DNA from: a virus
Taxonomy: Duplodnaviria; Heunggongvirae; Uroviricota; Caudoviricetes
Virus record (IMG/VR): IMGVR_UViG_2537561934_000004
Strand: one strand, 5' to 3'
DNA: 33,799 nt
Position numbers and translations under genes: made by a program. The notes under the pieces are model-generated. The model made no database searches, was not told the DNA's origin, and was given only the letters and a program-made list of their open reading frames with translations. This document shows positions 8,980-33,799 of this stretch, in pieces; the first letter of the stretch is position 1, and every line of letters begins with the position of its first letter.

Positions 8980-10479
8980 TTACAGAATGAACTGAACTTG
9001 TGCCGCGAAAATGCGGAACTGGTTAATCAGATTCGGGCCGCACAGCACATCAAGACGGTCTTTGTCGTCCTTGTTACGTGCCACATACAGCTCCTCTTTG
9101 AACGTGTCGAAATCCTCGACCAGTCCGGCGTTTTCCCATTCTTCAAACAGTGCCAGCAGCTCCGTTTTGATCACGGATGGCGTCACCACGGCCTGACCGG
9201 TGGCAAAGCGGGTGCCATCACTTGCCAGCTTGTGGTTCGGGAATTTCTGCGTGATGCGGGTTCGCAGCGAATAACGCAGATAACTCAGCGTGGCGATGGT
9301 ATTCACGTTCAGATAAGACGGATCGCTGTCACCGTACTTGTTCGTGCGGTACATCGTGATCATGCGTTCAATCTGCATTTCACCACCATCATTCACGTTA
9401 AACGTGGAGATGCCGTCAAACAGCAGCGCATTACGTTCTGACCAGGTGAAACGATCCCCCACCGCAGGCGGCATTCTTCCGGGCAACGTCAGCGTCTGGA
9501 GTGGACGCGCCGGGTCGATGGAAAGCGCCTGGCTGGCAACGGCACACAGGGTGGCGGCGTACAGATATGACGGTTCCGGTGCACCGGCAATCCCCATACA
9601 GGAAATCAGATGGTCATTACGTCTGACACCAAACGTGGAAATATCCCCATACGTGCCGGACAGCACTGTCACGGCAAAGCCATCAGCCTGACTGACCGGT
9701 CCCCAGCGTTCCTGCAATTCAGTGCGTAACAGATTCAGGTTCGGTTCATCGGTATAGGGCATCACAATATATTTGTATTGCAGATCGCCCATTCCCGCGA
9801 TACTTGCGCTGATATCCGGGTTGATGTATTTCCGGGATTCGGCTTTGAATGCCGTGATAATCCCGTAAGGGGTGGTTTCACCCGCGTAATAGTTCCAGCG
9901 CACATCCACGGCAGATAATGCACCCGTAAATTTTGCAGTCAGAACTATATCTGTAGCGCCGGCATCATCCGGCGTGGTTGAGAGCAATACTGCCTTCACC
10001 GGCAAATCAGGATGACCGTTGATTCGGTCAGTCAGCAGGCCAGCCAGCTTCGATCCCTTGGTACCTGCTGCGACGGATACCGCCAGTCGCTGACCGGCAA
10101 TGTAAGTCACAAGCGAGCCGTTTTCGGTTGCCGTTCCTGACAGTGTGATTAAACCGACAGTAGTTTTAGAGATAGTATTACCGGGGTTTTTCGCCTGCGG
10201 AATACACCACAGCTCCGCCACGCGGTTAGCTTTCAGGAATGCATCTGCCATCAGTGCCAGCATGGAACCCTGACCAAACGCCGCACTGGCCTGTGAGCCG
10301 GAACGGATACGGACAGGCACGTCTGGTGCCGCACTGGCCCCCTTATTGCTTTGCCCGAACATCAGCACGCGCTGACGGGGGGCCGGTGTTCCGCTGACGG
10401 CATTACTGTTATCAAATTCGATATACGCCAGAGGAACGCGAACATCTGGCGGGATCGCGTTAAATGAAATATCGCTCAT
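8980..10479 (-). CDS. L: Contractile tail sheath protein (Mu L-like)
   Basis: 499-aa ORF followed by the tube gene, the sheath-tube order of contractile tails; size matches Mu L. Confidence 0.85.
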
Positions 10480-19901: not shown

Positions 19902-20188
19902 GCACGGGGACGAGGACGCTTGACACCGGCAACGCGGGCACGACCTTCTGCCACATCCTGACCCCGGGAAGTCAGCGTTACGACATAAAAGCCGCGCAGG
20001 TTTTCCACGGTGACCAGTTGCTGCTCTGCCAGCCAGTCAATCTGGCCGCGAACCACATCGCGGGAAACGTTGTGTCCGTATGCATCCAGACAGTCCTGAA
20101 GGATGGATTCGTTGGCTTCGTTATTGCAGTCCATCAGGGAACGCAGGATGACCAGACGACGGTCTTCGGTCAGAATATCGTTAATCAT
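19898..20188 (-). CDS. Small protein (Mu gp26-like)
   Basis: 96-aa ORF, ATGA-coupled to the small terminase gene. Confidence 0.5.
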   Translation of the reverse strand: MINDILTEDRRLVILRSLMDCNNEANESILQDCLDAYGHNVSRDVVRGQIDWLAEQQLVTVENLRGFYVVTLTSRGQDVAEGRARVAGVKRPRPRA

Positions 20189-20484
20189 GAATTACTCCGG
20201 TTTACTGCGTTTTCAAGCAGCAGCTCCAGTTGATGGGAAAATGACTGCACCCGCTGGGACAGCACCCGGATATCACCGGACAGCTCTGCAATTCGCAGGC
20301 GCATTTCGTGTACATCTTCTGTGCCGGGGATGCTGGCGTAGCGGGTTTCCATTTCGGTCATCCGGTTTTCAAGACGCTCCACACGCTCGGTGCTGGCAAA
20401 ACTACGACGCATCGCCCAGACGGCCCCACCGGCCACAACAGGCAACAGGTAAGGCCATAACGCTAAAACTGAAATCAAATCCAT
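20185..20484 (-). CDS. N-terminally membrane-anchored coiled-coil protein (Mu gp25-like; candidate endolysin-release factor)
   Basis: Hydrophobic N-terminus (LISVLALWPYLLPVVAGGAVWA) followed by a predicted coiled coil. Likely start is the ATG at 20484, which abuts the upstream stop. Confidence 0.55.
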   Translation of the reverse strand: MDLISVLALWPYLLPVVAGGAVWAMRRSFASTERVERLENRMTEMETRYASIPGTEDVHEMRLRIAELSGDIRVLSQRVQSFSHQLELLLENAVNRSNS

Positions 20485-20678
20485 TATTCTGCTCCACGGC
20501 ACCAGTGGCAGTAGTTCGCCATCGGCTGCTGTCTCAGCACATCAGGCCGCAGCTCACGACCGCAACCGGCACACAATACAGGCGGGTCATACGCCGCCGG
20601 GCGGGGAATATCACGGGTATCCCCCTGCCAGAGTTCAGCGAGCAGCAGCGCCAGCGCCCGGTTCTGGTCTTCGTTCAT
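20484..20678 (-). CDS. TraR/DksA-type C4 zinc-finger protein
   Basis: 64-aa ORF with CAGCGRE...N17...CHWCRG (CxxC-N17-CxxC). Confidence 0.6.
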   Translation of the reverse strand: MNEDQNRALALLLAELWQGDTRDIPRPAAYDPPVLCAGCGRELRPDVLRQQPMANYCHWCRGAE

Positions 20679-21223: not shown

Positions 21224-21725
21224 CCGCCCCCCTGATATTCCAGATAGCCATTTCCACTTCGCGACGGTTCATCAGTCCTTTCCATTTATGGCCTGCGGCA
21301 AACACCCAGCGGGCCATCTGGTCACGCGCTCCGGCGTAATCACCGGCATTGAGTTTTTTCAGCAGCGTTGATTTACTGAATGCGGTAACACCGGTGTTGA
21401 AAATAAACGTTGCCAGCGCCGTTTTCTGATATGGCGTCAGCGGCACCCTGACAAGACGATCGATTGCCGCATAAACCGGTTTTAAATCACTGTCGAGAAG
21501 AGCCATACACTCCGCATGGCTGTAACGGCGCATTTCGATATCCGGCCCGGTATGTCCCACACAGACCGTAAGCACACCGGCAATATCGCGGTAAGGCATA
21601 TAAGCGATATTTTCCAGATGGATCAGAGACTGACGGGTCATTTCCTGATAACCACCCACACCGCCACCGGCAATCGTTGCCGCCAGCAGTGCGGCTTTCA
21701 GTTTTTTTGGTATCCCCGCCATCAT
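21207..21725 (-). CDS. lys: Endolysin (lysozyme) with N-terminal signal-anchor-release (SAR) domain
   Basis: 172-aa ORF; N-terminus KKLKAALLAATIAGGGVGGY is a weakly hydrophobic Gly/Ala-rich helix typical of SAR endolysins; first gene after C, as Mu lys. Confidence 0.8.
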   Translation of the reverse strand: MMAGIPKKLKAALLAATIAGGGVGGYQEMTRQSLIHLENIAYMPYRDIAGVLTVCVGHTGPDIEMRRYSHAECMALLDSDLKPVYAAIDRLVRVPLTPYQKTALATFIFNTGVTAFSKSTLLKKLNAGDYAGARDQMARWVFAAGHKWKGLMNRREVEMAIWNIRGADDLRQ

Positions 21726-21796
21726 GCTTCCCTGAAAAAATGCGCTGATGGCAGTCTAAAAAATCAGATGGCAGGTGCGGGATTATGGTGACAGGA

Positions 21797-21823
21797 AATA
21801 ACCGGCAGGATGCCGGTTATTTT
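21797..21823 (-). terminator. Hairpin overlapping the C stop codon (possible middle-transcript terminator)
   Basis: AAATAACCGGCA-GGA-TGCCGGTTATTT, an 11-12-bp perfect inverted repeat spanning the C stop, with U-rich flanks. Confidence 0.35.
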
Positions 21824-22239
21824 GGGCTTTCAGGTGAGAACAGATCAGGCTGATGACGTCGTGTATGCAGCTTTCTCTGGCGGGCAATAATCTGGTAGAT
21901 CTGCGGCTGGGACAGGCGATACTGGCGACGCAGTTCTTCCATGTTACGACCATTGAACTGGCAGTAAAGCAAATCGTCGCGTAACGCGGTCAGGATCGTA
22001 TCGCCGCAGGGGATGTAAAACTGCCGCCCGCCCAGAAAACAGGACAGGGCAACGGCCTGTTTACGGGCAAGCTCACGGGGATTGCTGACGTTCTGGCGTT
22101 TCAGTTCGTTTTCCAGAATATCAATCAGATCAACCACTGAACGGGGCCAGCGTGATTCCAGTTCCGGGGCCGGGATGTTATCAATATGCCCGATTAACTG
22201 GCGAATTGCCGGATCGTGTTCAAATAAATCATGCTGCAT
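21817..22239 (-). CDS. C: Late transcription activator C (Mor/C family)
   Basis: 140-aa ORF, same size as Mu C; its C-terminal half (GGRQFYIPCGDTILTALRDDLLYCQFNGRN...LSQPQIYQIIARQRK) parallels Mor at 23032..23421 (GGGQVYIPRGQVLDSLIRDLRIWNDFNGRN...GVTFNTVYKAIRRMR). Confidence 0.85.
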   Translation of the reverse strand: MQHDLFEHDPAIRQLIGHIDNIPAPELESRWPRSVVDLIDILENELKRQNVSNPRELARKQAVALSCFLGGRQFYIPCGDTILTALRDDLLYCQFNGRNMEELRRQYRLSQPQIYQIIARQRKLHTRRHQPDLFSPESPK

Positions 22240-22251
22240 ATTTTCCCCCGG

Positions 22252-22371
22252 TTAACAGACAAAAAGATACACCACGGCACTGATGGTTATCAGAACCACA
22301 AGGGCAATCACTTTTATCGCATTAATCAGCGTGGACGGCCCGAAACATTCATCACTGAATTTTCTGTACAT
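22252..22371 (-). CDS. Small hydrophobic protein (39 aa)
   Basis: Hand-found ORF between the membrane-protein gene and C: MYRKFSDECFGPSTLINAIKVIALVVLITISAVVYLFVC, with one predicted transmembrane helix and a weak Shine-Dalgarno. Below the ORF-track size cutoff. Confidence 0.4.
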   Translation of the reverse strand: MYRKFSDECFGPSTLINAIKVIALVVLITISAVVYLFVC

Positions 22372-22380
22372 GGTGCCCCT

Positions 22381-22743
22381 TTACCCGAACAGACGAGCGC
22401 GAAAACGAAAGGAGAGCCAGAACGTCAGCAATCCGGCCAGCGCCCAGATGACATACTCAGGACCCGTTTTCAGTTGAGACGTTGCCATCACGGCTAATCC
22501 CAGCCCGGACAGCCCCCCCAGCCAGGTCAGAGGCCAGACGAACCGGGCAAAATGTTCAGGCACCCGGCAGCTCATTATCAGCGCATCCAGATAATCACCG
22601 GCAACACATAAAGCAACACTGAAAACCGAGGCACAGCAAAACATCAGCGCGCGCCAGCCACAAAACAGACTTATCCACAATAACAGCGCCAGTAATACCA
22701 CCGATAAAAAATCAGGCCACTGACGAGCAGAACGCTCAGACAT
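22381..22743 (-). CDS. Multi-pass membrane protein (middle operon; holin-like candidate)
   Basis: Started at ATG 22743 (MSERSARQWPDFLSVVLLALLLW...), which has a GGAG Shine-Dalgarno 8 nt upstream; three or more hydrophobic segments. The ORF-track start at 22794 lacks an obvious ribosome-binding site. Confidence 0.55.
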   Translation of the reverse strand: MSERSARQWPDFLSVVLLALLLWISLFCGWRALMFCCASVFSVALCVAGDYLDALIMSCRVPEHFARFVWPLTWLGGLSGLGLAVMATSQLKTGPEYVIWALAGLLTFWLSFRFRARLFG

Positions 22744-22954
22744 AATGTTTCTCCCTGTAAAGCAGGCAATGATGAAGAATTTCCGGCATATCAACTGACT
22801 GCCAGCCTTTCATGTAATAACTGCCGTGGGTGCCATCATGACCGGTATAGTCGCGGGGCGCAGGACGTGGCCCACCGGCGACACGGCGCAAAACCTCCTG
22901 ACGCAGCCGCTCACGTCTGCCAAGATGAAAGGATGCATTCCAGCCTTTACCCAT
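22736..22954 (-). CDS. Hypothetical protein (72 aa), first ORF after the early terminator
   Basis: ORF-track entry with a GGGGAA Shine-Dalgarno; basic, no recognised motif. Coding status uncertain. Confidence 0.4.
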   Translation of the reverse strand: MGKGWNASFHLGRRERLRQEVLRRVAGGPRPAPRDYTGHDGTHGSYYMKGWQSVDMPEILHHCLLYREKHYV

Positions 22955-23001
22955 GATGATTTTCCCCGGTACGGTTATTCATCACAGGATATTGAGGACG
23001 T

Positions 23002-23024
23002 AAAAAAAGCCGGATTAACCGGCT
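23002..23024 (-). terminator. Rho-independent terminator immediately after mor (end of early transcript)
   Basis: Minus strand reads AGCCGG-TTAAT-CCGGCT followed by TTTTTTT, starting 8 nt after the Mor stop; about 9.3 kb from the left end. Confidence 0.6.
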
Positions 23025-23031
23025 TTACTGT

Positions 23032-23421
23032 TTACAGAAGTGAGGGCTGGTACTGGCGGTATTTCAGCCGTCGCATCCGGCGAATGGCCTTGTAAACCGT
23101 ATTGAAAGTGACACCATAACGGGTGGTCAGTTCGCTGACGTTGCGACCGTTAAAATCATTCCAGATACGCAAATCCCGAATCAGCGAGTCCAGAACCTGA
23201 CCGCGTGGAATGTAGACCTGACCGCCGCCCAGATGCTTACAGATAGCCACAACAATCTCCAGTGAATGGGCAGGATCAACACCCAGCCGGGACAATTCCC
23301 CGCGTAGTAAATCGTTCAGCTCCGCCAGCAGTGCCGGAAAGCGTGACGTATCCTCTGCGGGATTGTCAAGATGTGCCAGGATGGTGTCATCCTGCAAATC
23401 ACCAAATAAATCTTCCGTCAT
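23032..23421 (-). CDS. mor: Middle operon regulator Mor (Mor/C family activator)
   Basis: 129-aa ORF (Mu Mor is 129 aa) with a C-terminal region paralleling C; last gene before the early terminator. Confidence 0.85.
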   Translation of the reverse strand: MTEDLFGDLQDDTILAHLDNPAEDTSRFPALLAELNDLLRGELSRLGVDPAHSLEIVVAICKHLGGGQVYIPRGQVLDSLIRDLRIWNDFNGRNVSELTTRYGVTFNTVYKAIRRMRRLKYRQYQPSLL

Positions 23422-23969
23422 TGTGCCATCCTCCGCGTCTTTCTGGCATGGGCATAAGCCGCCGTCATGGCATCATAGCCGCGCAGTTCACGACCGGACG
23501 GACTGACCGGCAATGGAAGCCCGTGACGGGAAAAGGCTTCACGAATACAGCGGATGTGCCACTGCTTGAGTGTTTCGAGGACTGTCAGCAGCGTGTCGCC
23601 ATGACACCACGCCAGTGTGGAAACGCCCTGTCCGCCGTTGCGTTTCGCGGTCAGGCGCTGAACATATTTATCCAGCGCCACATCACCGCCATCGGTAATA
23701 AAACCGTCTTCTGCCATCTGCTGCCAGACTTTGTACACCTTCTCGCGGGGCGTGACATGTTCCTTAAAGCGGCGACGTGGATGTTTATTCAGCTTCTTAA
23801 AGCCGCGTTCTTTCATTGCATCGAGCGTCTGTTCCAGTTGCGTAACCGTCAGCTCGCGGCAACTGGTTTTGCCCGTTTTCTGCATCAGAAAGGCGCGGTA
23901 AGTGTCATCGTCGAGTTGTAGCTCCCGACGGGCGACATGGATTAATTTAATAAGCGATGTGCGATTCAT
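23418..23969 (-). CDS. gemA: GemA-like protein (Mu gp16-like)
   Basis: Frame 23418..24137, started at internal ATG 23969 (MNRTSLIKLIHVARRELQLDDDTYRAFL...), which has a GAGGTG Shine-Dalgarno; ATGA-coupled to mor. Confidence 0.7.
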   Translation of the reverse strand: MNRTSLIKLIHVARRELQLDDDTYRAFLMQKTGKTSCRELTVTQLEQTLDAMKERGFKKLNKHPRRRFKEHVTPREKVYKVWQQMAEDGFITDGGDVALDKYVQRLTAKRNGGQGVSTLAWCHGDTLLTVLETLKQWHIRCIREAFSRHGLPLPVSPSGRELRGYDAMTAAYAHARKTRRMAQ

Positions 23970-23999
23970 TTGCTCACCTCTCATATTAAGGAATGAGAT

Positions 24000-24416
24000 A
24001 TGAAAATTGATTATGACGAGATAGCCAGAATATTTGATGTTTTTCTGGAGGCCGACACCGCATTCATTCGACTGGAAGATGTCGGCTGGGAGCGTTCTCA
24101 GCGGCACAGCGACAGCCATCAGAAGCTGGTTTTCCATCTTCTGTTGCTGGTTGAAAATGGTTTTATCAGCAACAGATATCTGGAAACAGGCACCGCAAAA
24201 AGCATTGGTCTCACCCCAACAAGCCTCGGATATTCATATTCAGGCACCAGTGTCAGACTTACACAAGATGGTCATGATTTTGCGAAAGCACTACATCAAA
24301 AACCCATTCTTGAGCGCATAAAACAGGACCTTGCCGACGCCCCGATGACGCTCGTAACAGACGTCGGCAAACAGTGGTTAACCTCGTTTCTTAAAAAGAA
24401 ACTCGGGATTGAATAG
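24000..24416 (+). CDS. Hypothetical protein (138 aa) on the strand opposite to the early operon
   Basis: ATG at 24000 preceded by AAGGAA 8 nt upstream; no internal stops. Its 3' end converges on and overlaps the 24378..24689 gene by 39 nt. No family recognised. Confidence 0.6.
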   Translation: MKIDYDEIARIFDVFLEADTAFIRLEDVGWERSQRHSDSHQKLVFHLLLLVENGFISNRYLETGTAKSIGLTPTSLGYSYSGTSVRLTQDGHDFAKALHQKPILERIKQDLADAPMTLVTDVGKQWLTSFLKKKLGIE

Positions 24417-24689
24417 TTCCCGGTTCATACGTTGCAGCACATCAAGGGCGGCGACAGCCGCCACTTTATCGTTACCATCAGCAATAGTGCGGAGATTTTC
24501 AATAATCCAGTGAGGACTCAGTGACTCAGCAATAATGCCAAACCGGTACGCCATGACTTCATCAATAGCTTTTTCATGAGACGGCTCATATACAAAATTC
24601 ACAAAGTCATGCACTTCTTTTTTCGGCAAACCACCGGCAATCAGCAGGGCGGCAAGCTCTTCTGATTTTGAAAATACACCATTATTCAT
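24378..24689 (-). CDS. Hypothetical early protein (about 103 aa)
   Basis: The ORF-track start at 24704 is a GTG; the first ATG is 24689 (MNNGVFSKSEELAALLIAGG...), preceded by GAAGGTGAG and abutting the upstream stop. Confidence 0.5.
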   Translation of the reverse strand: MNNGVFSKSEELAALLIAGGLPKKEVHDFVNFVYEPSHEKAIDEVMAYRFGIIAESLSPHWIIENLRTIADGNDKVAAVAALDVLQRMNRELFNPEFLFKKRG

Positions 24690-24690
24690 A

Positions 24691-25449
24691 TCACTCACCT
24701 TCACAATTCATGCACGCCGTGTCATCGCCCATATCGCAGTGGTTGCATTTCTGCCCACCACAATGAGGGCACTCTTTCAGATATTCAGGGTTTTCATTAC
24801 CGCAGGTCGGGCATTCCTGTTTCACCGTGGTGAATGTCCCCAGCCACGAATACGAATTTTCACCGACTGTCTTTTTCCCCGTTATTTCTGAATCAGAACT
24901 AATACAGTGTTTTTCAACCCATGCCACACGTGCTGAATTCAGGTGGCATCTGGCCAATTTGCTTTCGTTTCTGTAATGTTTGCTGTCCCGGTTAAATGGC
25001 AATTTCTCATTCAGCCCTGCTGAGATAAAGTCCGCATGTAATTGTTCTAATGCGGCTTCACTGTCTGCACCGGTTGATTCAAAATAATCGTAAGCATTGG
25101 CACATAATCCGGCAGCCCGGGTAAATACATCATCGCCCGTCTCCATTGCCCCATTCTTTAACCATCGGTTGTAGGCTGTATAAAAACTATAAAGTTGCTT
25201 TCTGATACAGGTAGTGGCAGTTCCGCCATTAACTGACGCTGGCGTAACATAGCCAGCTCTGCATAAAGCAGAACGAAGTATATCCAGAACCTGCCAGGCA
25301 TCTTCTCCTTCAATCACGCTACAGTTTTTGTACACCAGGACGTCCCGGCCACAACTTTTATCAATACCCCAGTCTTCAAATTTCACAACCAGCCTCCTGC
25401 ACCACACCCGGTGCTGATGAAAAATCAATGATGAGATAACGCAGTACAT
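24691..25449 (-). CDS. Hypothetical early protein with a C-terminal four-CxxC cluster
   Basis: C-terminus CPTCGNENPEYLKECPHCGGQKCNHCDMGDDTACMNCEGE. The ATG at 25449 overlaps the upstream gene by 74 nt; a GTG at 25386 has an AGGAGG 6 nt upstream and is the more likely start (231 aa). Confidence 0.6.
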   Translation of the reverse strand: MYCVISSLIFHQHRVWCRRLVVKFEDWGIDKSCGRDVLVYKNCSVIEGEDAWQVLDILRSALCRAGYVTPASVNGGTATTCIRKQLYSFYTAYNRWLKNGAMETGDDVFTRAAGLCANAYDYFESTGADSEAALEQLHADFISAGLNEKLPFNRDSKHYRNESKLARCHLNSARVAWVEKHCISSDSEITGKKTVGENSYSWLGTFTTVKQECPTCGNENPEYLKECPHCGGQKCNHCDMGDDTACMNCEGE

Positions 25450-25915
25450 GGTCGGTGATATTCCAGGCGCTGGAACTGCAAATAAACCGCCCCAGCCGGA
25501 TATCGATATAAGCCATCACAAAACGGGGCATTCCCTGTTTGCACATCTCGTCATCCACTTCTGCAACGATGTGAACGGACTCACAGGTCAGTACGCCTGT
25601 CGCAAACTCTTTTGCCAGTGCGGGGATGGTATTACCTTCCACCCAGGGTAATGAGCGACGCCAGTTGCACCACACCGCATCATCAACAGCAGGCTGCTCA
25701 GTTGCGTTTCGTCTTACCGGCGGCGTCTGACGCGGGCGCGGAACGTCATAAAATCCGTTGCATTCGGTGAGCACTCCGGCATCAACCGCATCACGCAGGA
25801 AATACACCATTGCGGAGGGTGGCATCTGCATTTTTTCAGCCAGAACCCCGCAGGTCAGGCGTCCGTAAGCCCGTAATAATGTGCTGACACCATTCAGAAT
25901 TTTTGCATCAACCAT
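25376..25915 (-). CDS. Hypothetical early protein with a possible N-terminal winged-helix domain
   Basis: 179-aa ORF with GAGGAA Shine-Dalgarno; the helix-turn-helix call on residues ~1-55 (LAEKMQMPPSAMVYFLRDAVDAGVL) is a visual impression only; Cys/Trp-rich C-terminal domain of unknown function. Confidence 0.6.
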   Translation of the reverse strand: MVDAKILNGVSTLLRAYGRLTCGVLAEKMQMPPSAMVYFLRDAVDAGVLTECNGFYDVPRPRQTPPVRRNATEQPAVDDAVWCNWRRSLPWVEGNTIPALAKEFATGVLTCESVHIVAEVDDEMCKQGMPRFVMAYIDIRLGRFICSSSAWNITDHVLRYLIIDFSSAPGVVQEAGCEI

Positions 25916-26013
25916 GTTTTATTCCTCAGTAATCTGTTTCAGGCGCGAGCAATCCCCTGACGCATCGCGCCATAATTAAAAGAATGTGAATTAATTAAAT
26001 ATTAATGGTGGTA

Positions 26014-29031: not shown

Positions 29032-31020
29032 TTAAATGGCTTTTTTACGTCTGTTCTGTTCCAGAATATCCAGCGAATGATTCAGATATTCATCACGCTC
29101 AGTTTCGTATTCATCATCACGCTCCTGATTCTTCACCCGTTCCGTATTACCGGAAGGCCGGAAAATGCCGACAATTCGTGATTCTGGTGCTTCAGGTTCG
29201 GCTATCTGCGGCAGCAGCTCTGCCACTTCCAGTGCATCCATTTGTTTCTGTGCCTTAATCGCTGCTTTCGTCGCAGATTTCAGTTGTTTCTGGCGGCGGC
29301 GATATTCACGGCCTGCCGCAGCATCATTAAACGCAACAGGTGCCAGACATTCCGCTTCACAGATAAACCGACCGTCCAGGGTGTAACAATAAACCGTGCT
29401 GTGTAGCTGCTGCGGATCAAACCTGACCACAACTTTTTTCACGCCGGCATTCATTAATGCCATGTTGTAATAAACGTTTTTCGCGCCTTTAAGGGAGCCG
29501 CCAACTTTAAGCGTAAACTCGCCTTTGCGTGAAACGTTCACCGCCTCGGCAGGCAGTAACAGCATCCGTTTTTGTTCTTCGGTTGGCTTACGCACAATCG
29601 TTCTGGCGTATTCACGCTCGAAAACATCATCAAACGAGAGTTTGCCCCCGCACATTTCTGTTTCACGGCCTGTTCTGGCATTGAACATCGCCACACCTTC
29701 GGCAAGGTTTTTCAGAAACAGCTCTGCATCAACAGCGCGGTTGCCATAGTTATCAGGTTTTGCCTGCGGATTTGGCCCCGTATATGCGCCAGCCAGTGCC
29801 GGATGCTTATCAACGTATTCCTCAAGCCCACCAACACCGAAAGCACGTTCAACAGGTTTTGCCTGGCCCCAGCCTTTACCGGCAACAACGCTTGTCCAGT
29901 GCATTTTCGCACCCATCAGTAAAAACAATCCCTTTGGATCGTCTTCTTTCACCTTAAAGCGGTAGCGATTGGGCGCGCCTCCCGTCAGCCATTTATTCGC
30001 AGCACCACGGGTGTTATCAATGGTGATGTGAAAATCCTCCGGGATACCGTAGCGAGTCACAACATCCATGAACGAGAGGCGAATTGAATCAATGTTCTCG
30101 CTCACATCGCAGCGCCAGCCCAGAATTTTTCGGGTTTTCACATCCTGCCAGAACCATGTTTTCGGGCGGATCACATCACCGTTAAACCAGCGTACAAAGA
30201 CGTTATGCAGATAACCGTCGCCGTTGATCCACTGCATGGCGTCCAGGTGTTCCACAGTTCGCTGCTGTGCCGGTATCAGATGCATCAGTGCATGTTCACC
30301 TTCACGACAGGCAACAACCATTGCCTCGTCCAGTTGCTGAATCCGGCGAAAGGCCGTGGCACGGGAGGGAATACTCCAGCCATGCTCGCGGGCTGCCAGT
30401 TCCAGACGCTCATAACATTTGCGGAAGGCGGGTTTTTCCGGTCGCAGATAATCTGCAATCAGAAACTGCCAGGCATCCTCGTCAAATTCACTTTTGTGAA
30501 CATTGCGACGGGATGCACCACGTCCATCAACAAGTGCAGCCGCCCAGTCAGGCTTCGCAAACTTCTGTACCTGGTAATACTTGTCCCGCAAAGTGGATGC
30601 GCTGACCTGGTAATGCCCTGCAACGGTCGCAAAAGCCGTTTTCGTTGAAATCCCCTGGTTCAGCATTTCGTCTGCAGCCTGAACCGCAGGCAACCATTTT
30701 TCAGCAAGTCTGCGCTGGGAATCGCTGGCTTTATCCCATTTGCTCCACAGCACCTCACGATCATAATCATGGGCTTCCAGCGTGGGGCGGGCGATTTCAA
30801 AACGGCCCAGGCTTGTTTCAATTCTCCCTTGTTGCAACAGAATTTCAGCACGTAATGCGACAGGGAATGATTTGATATTGAATTCAAATGATACACCTTT
30901 AGTCCCTGCAACCTGTCTGAACTCCCAGCCTTCTCTTTGTGCCTTACGTGTAATGTTAGTGGCTTGCTTTGGTAAACCTGCCAAACCGAGCAACTCTTTT
31001 GCTGTATACCATTCTTTCAT
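29032..31020 (-). CDS. A: DDE transposase MuA
   Basis: 662-aa ORF. Acidic residues at D268 (WINGDGY), D335 (HITIDNTRG) and E391 (KPVERAF) sit one residue before MuA D269/D336/E392. The C-terminus ends QNRRKKAI, the MuA tail recognised by ClpX. Confidence 0.95.
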
Positions 31021-31027
31021 AGCGCAC

Positions 31028-31249
31028 CTAGTATCGAGACGGCCAAATATCTTGCGGTGTCATTCCCAGTGCATCTGCAATGATTTTCTCCGCTTTCGGA
31101 TATCTCTTATCCAAAGCATTTTTTAATGTTGAAGACGAAAGATGATTAGATCTTCCCAATTCAGCTAGTGACATATTGCGTTTTCGTAGCTCTGCAACGA
31201 TGTCAGCTCTGTGCCAATCTTGGCGGTTAGTTCTTTTATTCATATGCAT
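31028..31249 (-). CDS. ner: Ner-like DNA-binding regulator
   Basis: 73-aa ORF between the operator region and the transposase; ends ...[14 protein letters not shown], resembling the Ner/Nlp family C-terminus as I recall it. Confidence 0.8.
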
Positions 31250-31434
31250 TTCATGTAATCCTTTCAGATTCCCCCGCGAGCTACGCTATAAAGTAGCTCA
31301 CGGCATATCGTGCAATGTAGTGTGGAATCACTTTCAAATCAATAGTGATTTGAAAGGATTTGCCATGATTTCATATAACAGCATGATTTTTATATGAATT
31401 TATTTTGTCTCTATTGAAATCACTAGGATTTTAA
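31250..31434. promoter_or_regulatory. Divergent early/repressor promoter and operator region (expected to overlap the transposition enhancer)
   Basis: 185-bp gap between divergent ner and c, about 0.95 kb from the left end. Contains an 11-bp perfect inverted repeat CTTTCAAATCA-ATAG-TGATTTGAAAG at 31331..31356 and AT-rich tracts. Confidence 0.6.
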
Positions 31435-31959
31435 ATGATGTCTTTTGAAATCAAAGAATGGTTTAATGCGAAAGAGCTGGAAGGGATGCCTGGTGTACCA
31501 AAGTTGGCGACTAACATTACCAGGAAAGCTGTGGCGGAAGATTGGGTAAAACGTCAGCGTCACGGTGGGAAAGGTGTCGCTTATGAGTATCACATCAACA
31601 GTCTGCCAGAAGAAACACGCAGGGCCATTAAAGGAGCCTCACTTTCTGATAAACCAGTGCATACATCAATCGCCCATACAGTTGATGAGAGGCTAATTTA
31701 TGCAATGAGCTTCTTAACACCAGATGAGCAGGCCGCAGCTGTGGAGATCATTCGTGTGGCAGGGATTAAAGGACTTATGCCTACAATTGTCAGTAAAGAT
31801 AAGGCATTAGAGGCATTAGGGATTACTGTGGAGCAACAGAAAACCCTGCAAACTCTTCAGGCATTACCACCGGAAAAAGTGAGAGAGATTTTGTCTCAGT
31901 ATGAAGGCAAAGAACATAATTTCCCTGTAAGAGAAAACGATGTAAAGAAAGCTGTATAA
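31435..31959 (+). CDS. c: Mu-type repressor (c)
   Basis: 174-aa ORF divergent from ner. Its N-terminus ([61 protein letters not shown]) parallels the transposase N-terminus ([60 protein letters not shown]). Confidence 0.8.
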   Translation: MMSFEIKEWFNAKELEGMPGVPKLATNITRKAVAEDWVKRQRHGGKGVAYEYHINSLPEETRRAIKGASLSDKPVHTSIAHTVDERLIYAMSFLTPDEQAAAVEIIRVAGIKGLMPTIVSKDKALEALGITVEQQKTLQTLQALPPEKVREILSQYEGKEHNFPVRENDVKKAV

Positions 31960-32124
31960 CAACCAGGTAATAGCTAAGACATAAACTTCACTCCAGGCAA
32001 TTACATATGTAAGATACCCAAACAGTGATGATTGTTTTTGACACACATCACTTGCTGAAAGCCTGGTTGTTACCGTTTTTGAAGCATTTTTGAAGCTGTA
32101 CTTGAAATGATGCGTGAAGTAATT

Positions 32125-32298
32125 GCTTTTCGTGTCTTTAATGAATCAAAAGCTGTTTCCAACAATCTTTCGCGTTTCAAGATGTAACGGCTAAAATCTG
32201 TCCTACAGGCTTGCAAGCCCCACTAAATCTAATCCCGCCAAATCCCGAATAATCCAATGTCCTCCCGGTTTTTTTCGTACTTCAAGTGAATCAATACA
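32125..32298 (-). repeat. Prophage left end with three MuA-binding repeats (L1, L2, L3)
   Basis: On the minus strand: L1 TGTATTGATTCACTTGAAGTACGAAAAAA (32298..32270), L2 CATCTTGAAACGCGAAAG (32184..32167), L3 TGATTCATTAAAGACACGAAAAGC (32148..32125). All carry the (A/C)CGAAA(A) core and the spacing (about 0-28, 114-131, 150-173 bp from the end) matches Mu attL. Confidence 0.8.
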
Positions 32299-32706
32299 CC
32301 CGATTATATTTCCCGCTACGGGAAGCCAGAAACGATCGACGATTTAAAGCAACATATTTGCCTGGGATTCACTGAACCCGCTTCCCTCAATACCTGGCCG
32401 ATAGCCCGTAGCGATGGACAATTACATGAGGTGAAGTACGGTTTGTCATCCAATAGTGGGGAAACACTGAAACAGCTTTGCCTGAGTGGCAACGGGATTG
32501 CGTGTTTGTCCGACTACATGATCGACAAAGAAATCGCTCGCGGAGAATTGGTGGAGTTAATGGCAGATAAAGTGTTGCCAGTGGAAATGCCATTCAGTGC
32601 CGTCTATTACAGCGACCGTGCGGTAAGTACGCGCATCCGGGCTTTTATCGATTTCCTTAGCGAGCATGTAAAAACAGCTCCCGGAGGAGCTGTCAGAGAG
32701 GCTTAA
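32299..32706 (+). pseudogene. yafC: LysR-type regulator gene (yafC-like) truncated at its 5' end by the prophage
   Basis: The frame translating ...[56 protein letters not shown]... is open from the prophage junction to the stop at 32706. It has no start codon or N-terminal helix-turn-helix; only the C-terminal effector domain remains. Convergent with dkgB as in E. coli. Confidence 0.75.
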
Positions 32707-33506
32707 TCCCATTCAGGAGCCAGACCTTCCGGGCTAACCAGGCGGTCGTTGCAATCCAGTGCGGCGATCGCTTTTTTATCTTCGGCATCAAGCTGTAAAT
32801 TTTGTGCCTTAAGATTACTTTCCAGGTTTTTACGTTTAGTAGAAGAAGGAATTACTGAGTAACCTTCCCCCATAGCCCACGCCAGAATCACTTGTGCCGG
32901 AGTCGCATTGTGTTTAGCTGCGATACGAGCAATAACCTCATCTTTCAGGGCCTTACCATACGCCAGCGTCATATAGGAAGTAATATGGATGCCGTGCTGT
33001 TTAGCCCAGGCAACCACTTTACGGTTTTGCAGATAAGGAGAGAGTTCAATCTGGTTAGTAGCGATGTTTTCAGCACCAACAGCAGCAATCGCTTTTTCCA
33101 TCAACGGGATCGTGAAGTTGGAAATACCGATCTCACGCGTCAGCCCTTGTTTTTTGGCTTCCAGCAGCGCCTGCATAAACTCTTCAACAGAGACTTCATC
33201 GTTTGGTGACGGCCAGTGGATTAGCGTCAGATCAACATAATCGGTACGCAATTTTTGCAGGCTCTCTTTCAGACTTGGGATCAATTTGTCTTTGCTGAGA
33301 TTTTCAATCCAGATTTTAGTGGTGATGTAGAGTTCATGACGTGGCACGCCACTTTCTGCAATCGCCTGACCTACTGCGGCTTCGTTATCATAGATTTGTG
33401 CGGTATCAATTGCGCGATAACCAAGTTCAAGCGCCGTTATCACAGATGAAATAACAACGTCGTCTTTCAGACGGAAAGTACCTAAACCAAATGCAGGGAT
33501 AGCCAT
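32703..33506 (-). CDS. dkgB: Aldo-keto reductase, 2,5-diketo-D-gluconate reductase B
   Basis: 267-aa [21 protein letters not shown]... with aldo-keto reductase motifs ([27 protein letters not shown]); length equals E. coli DkgB. Confidence 0.9.
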
Positions 33507-33628
33507 AATATGCCTCTTTTAATGCTATTTTCGTTAACTGAGGTGATTATGGGCTTCAGACTGTTGAGGAAAAAGAGCGTAAAATGCAGAGGATTTTTGC
33601 GATTCTGGCAATAATAGATATACAGACG

Positions 33629-33656
33629 AAAAAAAACCTCGAGCGTTAACTCGAGG
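33629..33656 (-). terminator. Rho-independent terminator downstream of tRNA-Asp
   Basis: Minus strand reads CCTCGAG-TTAACG-CTCGAGG followed by TTTTTTTT, about 12 nt after the tRNA 3' end. Confidence 0.7.
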
Positions 33657-33668
33657 CTTCTTAATAAG

Positions 33669-33745
33669 TGGCGGAACGGACGGGACTCGAACCCGCGACC
33701 CCCTGCGTGACAGGCAGGTATTCTAACCGACTGAACTACCGCTCC
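33669..33745 (-). tRNA. aspU: tRNA-Asp (anticodon GUC)
   Basis: Minus strand reads GGAGCGGTAGTTCAGTCGGTTAGAATACCTGCCTGTCACGCAGGGGGTCGCGGGTTCGAGTCCCGTCCGTTCCGCCA (77 nt, encoded CCA), anticodon loop CUGUCAC. The symbol aspU is inferred from adjacency to dkgB; it could be another Asp copy. Confidence 0.9.
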
Positions 33746-33799
33746 ACCGAATTCTTTTACAACCACCGGTTTTATGACCGGCTTACTGCTTAATTTGAT

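Follow-up and report, generated by a model that had tools for sequence, protein, structure and literature searches.

The segment between mor and the late activator gene C in the window (the whole 33,799-nt stretch of DNA analyzed here) is very probably the point where early transcription gives way to middle transcription in a phage Mu-type prophage; one element would serve there as both terminator and operator ahead of a middle operon in the order 18, 19, 20 and C. On the sequence, the early terminator and the operator for the activator Mor are a single overlapping element. The terminator, the middle promoter (Pm) and genes 18-20 are already known, and the work on them in Mu (mapping, mutation and annotation) goes back decades. 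The identity of the locus, its anatomy and the anchoring of its positions come from the present analysis; Mor binding, the transcription start site and the dispensability of genes 18-20 are taken from published Mu work and are expected to hold here by homology.

Over 1.8 kb, window positions 21700-23500 are 98.5% identical at the nucleotide level to phage Mu (AF083977, 8702-10502), and the same query is 98.3% identical to D108 (GQ357916). The prophage of E. coli W, LY180 and S17-1 is 99.0% identical over an 861-bp query. The curated Mu (AF083977) and D108 records annotate the same junction features; together with the identity to Mu, these matching annotations bear out an earlier note on this DNA, which had claimed a Mu early-terminator/middle-operon junction here. 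Across the middle region the window differs from Mu by point substitutions only, with zero indels, so that a window coordinate equals 32202 minus the Mu coordinate, and every base from 23060 to 22964 is that of Mu. Residue differences from the Mu proteins are few (Mor, one; gp18, one; gp19, four; gp20, one; C, two). The prophage lies on the minus strand, as do mor, both hairpins, the promoter elements and the middle genes described below; its left end is at 32298, positions 32299-33799 are host DNA, and its immunity region is of the D108 type (99.1% identical).

The last early gene, mor (gp17; 23032-23421), is annotated in AF083977 as encoding the activator of the middle promoter. The gene is intact and directly upstream of Pm, and its 129-aa product matches the Pfam Mor family (PF08765, E = 4e-33). 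Six nucleotides past its stop codon (TAA, 23034-23032) begins the predicted intrinsic terminator of the early transcript (23002-23026). The hairpin, AAAGCCGG-TTAAT-CCGGCTTT at 23026-23006, has a GC-rich stem of 8 bp (23026-23019 / 23013-23006) that includes five G-C pairs and closes a 5-nt loop, and the T-run extends to 23002, giving seven consecutive U at 23008-23002. A G+C-rich stem-loop past a stop codon, with a U-run directly after it, is the expected form of an intrinsic terminator. With the left end of the prophage at 32298, the hairpin lies 9.27 kb from that end, matching the earlier note's hairpin and T-run after mor at about 9.3 kb. In 1990, Stoddard and Howe reportedly mapped the 3' end of the early transcript at about 9.2 kb. 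The predicted RNA fold has an energy of -14 kcal/mol, compared with -5.7 +/- 2.0 in shuffled sequences (z = -4.1), and none of 200 shuffles equaled it. A generic terminator scan returned 10 sites against 6.1 +/- 2.6 expected and is not discriminating here; the case for a terminator is therefore built on position, fold energy, conservation (the element is invariant in 12 diverged loci) and the annotations in Mu (TransTermHP) and D108 (rho-independent), both of which are predictions. The only hit of an Rfam scan of 21700-23500 is one to sroD that covers the hairpin; at 20 bits (E = 0.55) it stays below the gathering score of 50, and we attribute it to chance.

Promoter positions could be anchored with published primers. 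Primer JM6 covers Pm -87 to -48 with Ns at -57 to -52, and primer MLK7 covers +10 to -9 (PMC4390567); on the window these place the start site (+1, an A) at 22978, -57G at 23035 and -54A at 23032. The annotated Mu promoter (9163-9233) corresponds to window 23039-22969, consistent with a start at 22978, and the sequence from -62 to +10 (23040-22969) is identical to Mu. The Mor-binding dyad is reported at Pm -51 to -36 (PMC4287176; PMC4390567), and the window carries an imperfect 16-bp dyad at this position (23014-23029, no strand assigned; center -43.5). It reads AGTAA-AGCCGG-TTAAT, with 5-bp arms that match as an inverted repeat at four of five positions and a G/C-rich spacer of 6 bp. The hairpin stem occupies Pm -48 to -28, and the operator coincides with the 5' arm and loop of the hairpin. 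Immediately upstream, the alpha-CTD/proximal UP subsite (GTAAAC, -57 to -52; 23030-23035), located by primer JM6 and identical to Mu, overlaps the mor stop codon.

Pm has been described as having a -10 element and lacking a -35 (PMC4287176). In agreement with this description, a sigma-70 scan found no full, two-hexamer promoter at Pm, and the window contains a likely -10 hexamer (TATCCT, -13 to -8; 22986-22991), whose spacing is kept in 12 relatives, with neither a -35 nor an extended -10. The start codon of gene 18 is at +25, leaving a 24-nt leader. The earlier note had located Pm within 22955-23001. Because the primers fix +1 at 22978, that interval takes in no more than the start site and the likely -10 (22991-22986); the Mor operator (23029-23014) falls outside it, inside the terminator hairpin rather than downstream of it, and the promoter had thus been put too far downstream.

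From these features we propose how the junction works. One 35-bp sequence would do two jobs, as an RNA terminator and as a DNA operator. The early transcript from Pe, which encodes Mor, would end at the hairpin and U-run just past mor. A Mor dimer would bind the imperfect dyad at -51 to -36, on the 5' arm and loop of the hairpin, and the alpha-CTD of RNA polymerase would contact the A-tract that overlaps the mor stop codon. Together with sigma-70 contacts, these interactions would bring RNA polymerase to an otherwise silent Pm, and the sigma-70 polymerase would initiate at 22978 from a promoter with a -10 and without a -35. Both Mor binding and Mor-dependent activation of Pm are drawn from published Mu work (PMC4287176; PMC4390567). 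As Mor from the early transcript is needed at Pm, middle transcription would start only afterwards. The middle transcript would consist of the 24-nt leader followed by gp18, gp19, gp20 and C, with its probable end at the hairpin behind C, and C would next activate Plys and the other late promoters.

The three open reading frames that the earlier note had placed before C (one basic of 72 aa, one multi-pass membrane and one single-helix of 39 aa) are all present and correspond to Mu genes 18, 19 and 20. The middle genes are tightly packed, with an 8-nt overlap and then gaps of 9 and 12 nt. Gene 18 (E18; 22736-22954) encodes a 72-aa basic, soluble protein (K+R, 12; D+E, 7; His, 6) that matches phrog_2121 (E = 5.5e-36). 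We assign it to the Phage_Mu_gp18 family through homologues 58-92% identical that bear a precomputed PF26867 match, this family being missing from our local Pfam copy. An alignment with homologues 63-92% identical has 33 invariant columns, and dN/dS values of 0.04-0.28 indicate purifying selection comparable to that on mor. Only 18 representatives at 50% identity were found among 1.8 billion proteins. The AlphaFold model is a confident fold of three helices (pLDDT 85.5; good in only two of five models). In a Foldseek comparison with PDB structures its best hit had E = 2, too weak to count as a match, so the fold gives no function.

Gene 19 (E19; 22381-22743) encodes a 120-aa inner-membrane protein that is 96.7% identical to Mu gp19 and matches phrog_4975 (E = 7e-73). 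Its start is the ATG at 22743; the mechanical reading frame from the TTG at 22794 has 137 aa. The AF083977 annotation gives gp19 an N-in, C-in topology with four transmembrane domains (TMDs). Hydropathy (KD19 of at least 1.6) resolves a single long stretch, residues 8-58, and the count of four is therefore taken from the annotation. Compared with its most diverged relative (L024), gp19 has a dN/dS of 0.28, and it changes more quickly than its flanking genes (dS 0.28 vs 0.064 for mor and 0.065 for C). A wide protein search yielded only six clusters, confined to Mu/D108-type prophages.

Gene 20 (22252-22371) encodes a 39-aa single-pass membrane peptide that is 97% identical to its Mu counterpart, matches phrog_19823 (E = 2.6e-30) and is hydrophobic from residue 9 to 39. 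Its 39 codons carry no purifying-selection signal; we consider it a probable gene because it has a ribosome-binding site and a helix and is retained in all operon variants. Searches with gp18, gp19 and gp20 against Pfam, NCBIfam and PADLOC assigned no family, PHROGs returned only families of unknown function, and wide protein searches with gp18 and gp19 revealed no distant annotated relatives. On the opposite, plus strand, antisense reading frames (e.g., 22826-23095) correspond to old "putative" entries of M64097 that are absent from the curated annotation.

The last middle gene, C (gp21; 21817-22239), encodes the late-transcription activator, another member of the Mor family (PF08765, E = 2.4e-33), 98.6% identical to Mu C. 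A hairpin at its end (21796-21822), identified from its fold and from the Mu annotation, is the likely end of the middle transcript and adjoins Plys. It has a 12-bp stem, and a 56-nt segment containing it folds at -16.3 kcal/mol (z = -5.4); its T-run is weak. In the Mu annotation, the terminator at 10383-10406 and Plys at 10403-10469 correspond to window 21819-21796 and 21799-21733, respectively. As this hairpin sits just upstream of the C-dependent Plys, a design in which a terminator abuts an activated promoter appears to be used twice.

The composition of the middle operon varies among close Mu siblings. We typed the segment from Pm to C in 41 complete E. coli genomes, one of which gave only a partial match. 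The order 18-19-20-C, found in the window, E. coli W and S17-1, occurs in 19 genomes, and 18-20-C in 17; phage SfMu, outside these 17, has the latter form. In three genomes, and also in phages vB_YpM_5/6, the order is GH108-18-20-C, and a single genome (E. coli elppa5) has GH108-18-19-20-C. A GH108 endolysin is thus still in the middle operon of four sibling E. coli prophages. Both GH108 forms have an intact Pm, and their first middle gene encodes a soluble endolysin with GH108 and PG_binding_3 domains. Gene 19 is exactly absent (372 bp, window 22743-22372) from SfMu, Tongde and 17 E. coli prophages, and gene 20 is retained in all four configurations. The gp18 of vB_YpM_5 is saturated in dS relative to that of the window, one example of the mosaic character of this region. 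GH108 also directly precedes gp18 in three further loci (L005, L019 and L020).

The same gene pair is found in diverged Mu-like prophages. Context was read for 14 diverged loci (L007-L010, L012-L017, L021-L023 and L011, which is cut off and ends in a 3' fragment of the GH108 gene), and in every one the gene right after GH108 encodes a gp18 homologue. The loci belong to E. coli, Enterobacter, Pluralibacter, Klebsiella, Raoultella and Serratia or were taken from metagenomes, and one gp18 family member beside GH108 matches at only E = 4e-9. The stop and start codons of the pair overlap or nearly abut. The small protein encoded in the slot after gp18 varies among the loci; in most it has 115-136 aa and two long hydrophobic blocks, compatible with four TMDs. 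The next gene product has weak-to-moderate similarity to a 3TM holin family and is followed by TraR/DksA and DUF2730 proteins. Comparison of gp19 with the relatives' four-TMD proteins gave a BLASTP E of 0.13 and an hhalign probability of 16% over 90 collinear columns, and we treat them as apparent positional analogues only.

Upstream of the endolysin gene, the relatives carry the junction element itself. The sequence AGCCGG-TWAAT-CCGGC-T7 is invariant directly upstream of this gene in 12 Enterobacterales loci, and a -10-like hexamer (A at position 2, T at position 6) lies 17 nt past the hairpin in all 12, an arrangement that holds even with a cargo gene between the element and mor. In the prophage of E. 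coli VL40, whose lineage accounts for 50 of 5426 complete E. coli genomes, no C paralogue was found; a single Mor-family gene is annotated in the 31 kb read, which extends to the cut tail-fibre assembly gene. Within an incomplete coverage of the literature, the papers on SfMu and the Yersinia phages make no mention of a GH108-gp18 link.

Because GH108 precedes gp18 in all diverged relatives examined, behind the same hairpin and promoter, four siblings keep the endolysin and about half of the siblings lack gene 19, the accessory genes of the window look like remnants of a lysis cassette. We speculate that gp18, gp19 and perhaps gp20 are accessory leftovers of a GH108-endolysin lysis cassette, non-essential here and not holins, a reading whose chances we judge to be about even. 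More tentatively, and at somewhat less than even chances, the whole Mu middle operon may be a decayed lysis cassette from an ancestral two-tier Mor cascade, the Mu lineage having gained C and lost GH108. In such an ancestor, Mor would have directly switched on a promoter with the same hairpin and operator, and this promoter would have driven the genes for a soluble GH108 endolysin, for gp18 (translationally coupled to the endolysin), for a small membrane protein and for a protein resembling 3TM holins. C, Plys, a SAR lysozyme and spanins would then have replaced the holin-like gene in the Mu lineage, and GH108 would have been lost afterwards, so that gp18, gp19 and gp20 stayed behind as dispensable genes. 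Loss of GH108 rather than its gain would be the simplest reading, based on outgroup parsimony in a mosaic region.

If this account holds, gp18 would be a dedicated, uncharacterized endolysin-associated factor, and some present-day siblings of Mu would produce an endolysin from Pm during the middle phase as well. This is a modest lead. It may explain why three dispensable genes lie ahead of C in Mu. It also offers a candidate function for the Phage_Mu_gp18 family, as a partner of GH108 endolysins, and a plausible route from a two-tier cascade to the three-tier Mor-to-C cascade of Mu.

Alternatively, gp18-gp20 could be cargo ("moron") genes that act on the host or in competition, for instance in exclusion or by modifying membranes, and have nothing to do with lysis; the proximity to an endolysin in relatives would then be incidental. 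Such a role would fit their dispensability for plaque formation (PMC9239132), their presence/absence polymorphism, the faster divergence of gp19 than of its flanks, and the tiny gp18 and gp19 families, which are confined to Enterobacterales Mu-like prophages. However, it is hard to regard as incidental that gp18 adjoins a GH108 endolysin in each of the diverged lineages examined; moreover, no known defense family matches gp18-gp20 and, by analogy with Mu, these genes would be expressed in the lytic middle phase and not from a lysogenic promoter. We therefore consider a cargo role unlikely, although less so than the other alternatives, and retain the lysis-cassette origin as our working interpretation.

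The invariance of the junction element among the relatives also bears on what the hairpin does. Its stem shows no compensatory changes among the 12 diverged loci, and because it never varies, there is no covariation by which to tell constraint on RNA from constraint on DNA. An invariant stem of this kind is what would be expected of a protein-binding site; the left half of the hairpin is covered by the Mor dyad and footprint and, where a cargo gene separates promoter from mor, the hairpin stays by the promoter. It might therefore be kept only as DNA, as Mor operator and promoter spacer, and terminate inefficiently, with early transcription reading into the middle genes. Yet the right arm and the 7-T run, which lie outside the footprint of Mor alone on Pm (-56 to -36; PMC4287176), are equally invariant, and the hairpin has all the features of an intrinsic terminator, which is how the Mu and D108 records list it. 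Published Mu work, in which middle genes are not expressed without Mor, speaks against substantial read-through; our literature search found no Mu RNA-seq paper. The DNA-site and terminator roles are, moreover, compatible with each other. We consider a purely DNA-level role improbable and favor the dual role, in which the hairpin would terminate early transcription in the present prophage with an efficiency assumed from Mu.

A holin function for the two membrane proteins is the least probable of the alternatives. Samanta et al. (2021) proposed Mu gp19 and gp20 as holin and antiholin, which here would time lysis by the SAR endolysin, and the earlier note had called them the only holin-like candidates near the lysis genes. 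Both are small membrane proteins (annotated with four TMDs and one TMD, and thus at least one each) encoded less than 1 kb from lys, and in the diverged relatives a membrane protein of 115-136 aa follows gp18 within a true lysis cassette, beside a weakly 3TM-holin-like protein. In these respects they resemble lambda S105/S107 and phage 21 S68, which are likewise small membrane proteins encoded near the endolysin. Unlike those holins, gp19 and gp20 are middle-expressed, dispensable, non-lethal on triggering and without a family match. [quoted passage not shown] Neither product matches a described holin family (no match in Pfam, NCBIfam or PADLOC, and PHROGs families of unknown function), and gene 19 is missing from 20 of the 41 sibling prophages (17 without GH108 and 3 with it) as well as from SfMu and Tongde.

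Published tests with the Mu proteins, which are about 95-97% identical to gp19 and gp20 of the window, weigh most directly against this function. According to the account given in PMC9239132, Mathee & Howe (1993) found that genes 19 and 20 can both be inactivated with lysis unaffected. Chamblee et al. (2022) found that Mu 19, 20 or both were not lethal upon DNP triggering, nor was expression of all candidates together, unlike lambda S105 and phage 21 S68 (PMC9239132). Mu relies instead on the releasin gp25, which in the window is encoded at 20185-20502 (DUF2730, E = 2.5e-13) as a membrane protein within the lysis cluster. Since gp25 lies there, gp19 and gp20 are not the sole membrane proteins near the lysis genes, and the spanin gp23 is also close by. 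The holin role suggested for the two membrane reading frames is thus contradicted by the Mu tests, and the holin reading of Mu gp19 and gp20 is largely refuted; we regard a holin-antiholin pair as highly improbable, and the proteins as more plausibly cassette leftovers.

Among known systems, the middle operon of Mu itself is the closest match: gene order and spacing are the same as in the window, and not a base differs in the terminator, the Mor operator, the -10 or the start site. The prophage differs from Mu in its immunity, which is D108-type rather than Mu-type, and carries other cargo in part of its semi-essential early region. D108 and the E. coli W / LY180 / S17-1 prophage have the same operon, with no difference of substance here. 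Operons of the SfMu and vB_YpM_5 type share mor, the hairpin, Pm, gp18, gp20, C and lys with the window; in vB_YpM_5/6 and three E. coli prophages the GH108 endolysin comes first and gene 19 is absent, the reverse of the window. A more distant comparison is offered by the Mor-only Enterobacterales prophages (E. coli VL40, Pluralibacter, Klebsiella, Raoultella and Serratia), which have gemA and a mor orthologue 56-64% identical, and which share with the window a gp18 homologue 58-67% identical and a membrane protein in the gene-19 slot. Unlike in the window, their promoter drives the GH108 endolysin directly, and a weakly 3TM-holin-like protein of ~200 aa stands in place of the gp20-C-Plys-SAR lysozyme-spanin segment.

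The hairpin that overlaps the Mor operator of the middle promoter Pm (AGCCGG-TWAAT-CCGGC-T7; window 23002-23029) is invariant among diverged Mu-like prophages (L007-L017; for example, L010 1834-1890) whose Mor proteins are just 56-64% identical. Where cargo genes lie between mor and the promoter in these prophages, the hairpin/operator stays with the downstream promoter and not with mor. The same design recurs at the end of the middle operon, where a strong 12-bp hairpin (window 21796-21822) directly follows C and adjoins the C-dependent promoter Plys (window 21733-21799). This second hairpin has a weak T-run and was overlooked by a simple terminator scan.

Between these elements, gene 19 shows a clean presence/absence polymorphism when the window (22372-22743) is compared with two SfMu-type loci (L004 and L006) and 17 E. 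coli genomes. The SfMu-type prophages lack exactly 372 bp, extending from the gene 19 ATG to just before the gene 20 ATG, and encode a gp18 of 76 aa. In the comparison with L024 (window 22381-22743 versus L024 2501-2863), gp19 has a dS of 0.28 and a dN of 0.078, whereas dS is 0.064 in mor and 0.065 in C. The several-fold faster divergence of gp19 relative to its neighbors suggests that constraint on it is relaxed or that it has recombined with a diverged allele.

Gene content at Pm also varies among very close Mu relatives, some of which carry an intact soluble endolysin with GH108 and PG_binding_3 domains as the first Pm-driven middle gene (L005 852-1412; L019 and L020, both 1949-2509), at the site matching window 22955-22978. 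Examples include phages vB_YpM_5/6 and, in E. coli, the elppa5 and FDAARGOS_1059 prophages. In these siblings the middle-operon endolysin, on which the paper describing the Yersinia phages (PMC10434027) is silent, exists alongside the late SAR lysozyme.

Over the 31 kb that were read of a Mu-like prophage of E. coli VL40 (L025 11583-42342), C is absent and just one gene is annotated as belonging to the Mor family, implying that transcription in this lineage would follow a two-tier rather than a three-tier cascade. The lineage is present in 50 of 5426 E. coli genomes, which puts it on a par with Mu itself in that species.

The semi-essential early region (window 23900-26000) is only 41-51% matched by any Mu-group phage. 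Its unmatched ORFs, which have no Pfam match, encode 138 aa (24000-24416, plus strand, opposite to the prophage), 108 aa (24378-24704, minus) and 252 aa with a Cys-rich C-terminus (24691-25449, minus). Position 32298 is the left end of the prophage; the 1.5 kb beyond it (window 32299-33799) is host DNA and contains a 267-aa ORF (32703-33506, minus). The immunity region of the prophage (c, ner; window 31000-32298) is D108-type, with 99.1% identity, whereas the prophage outside this region is equally close to Mu.
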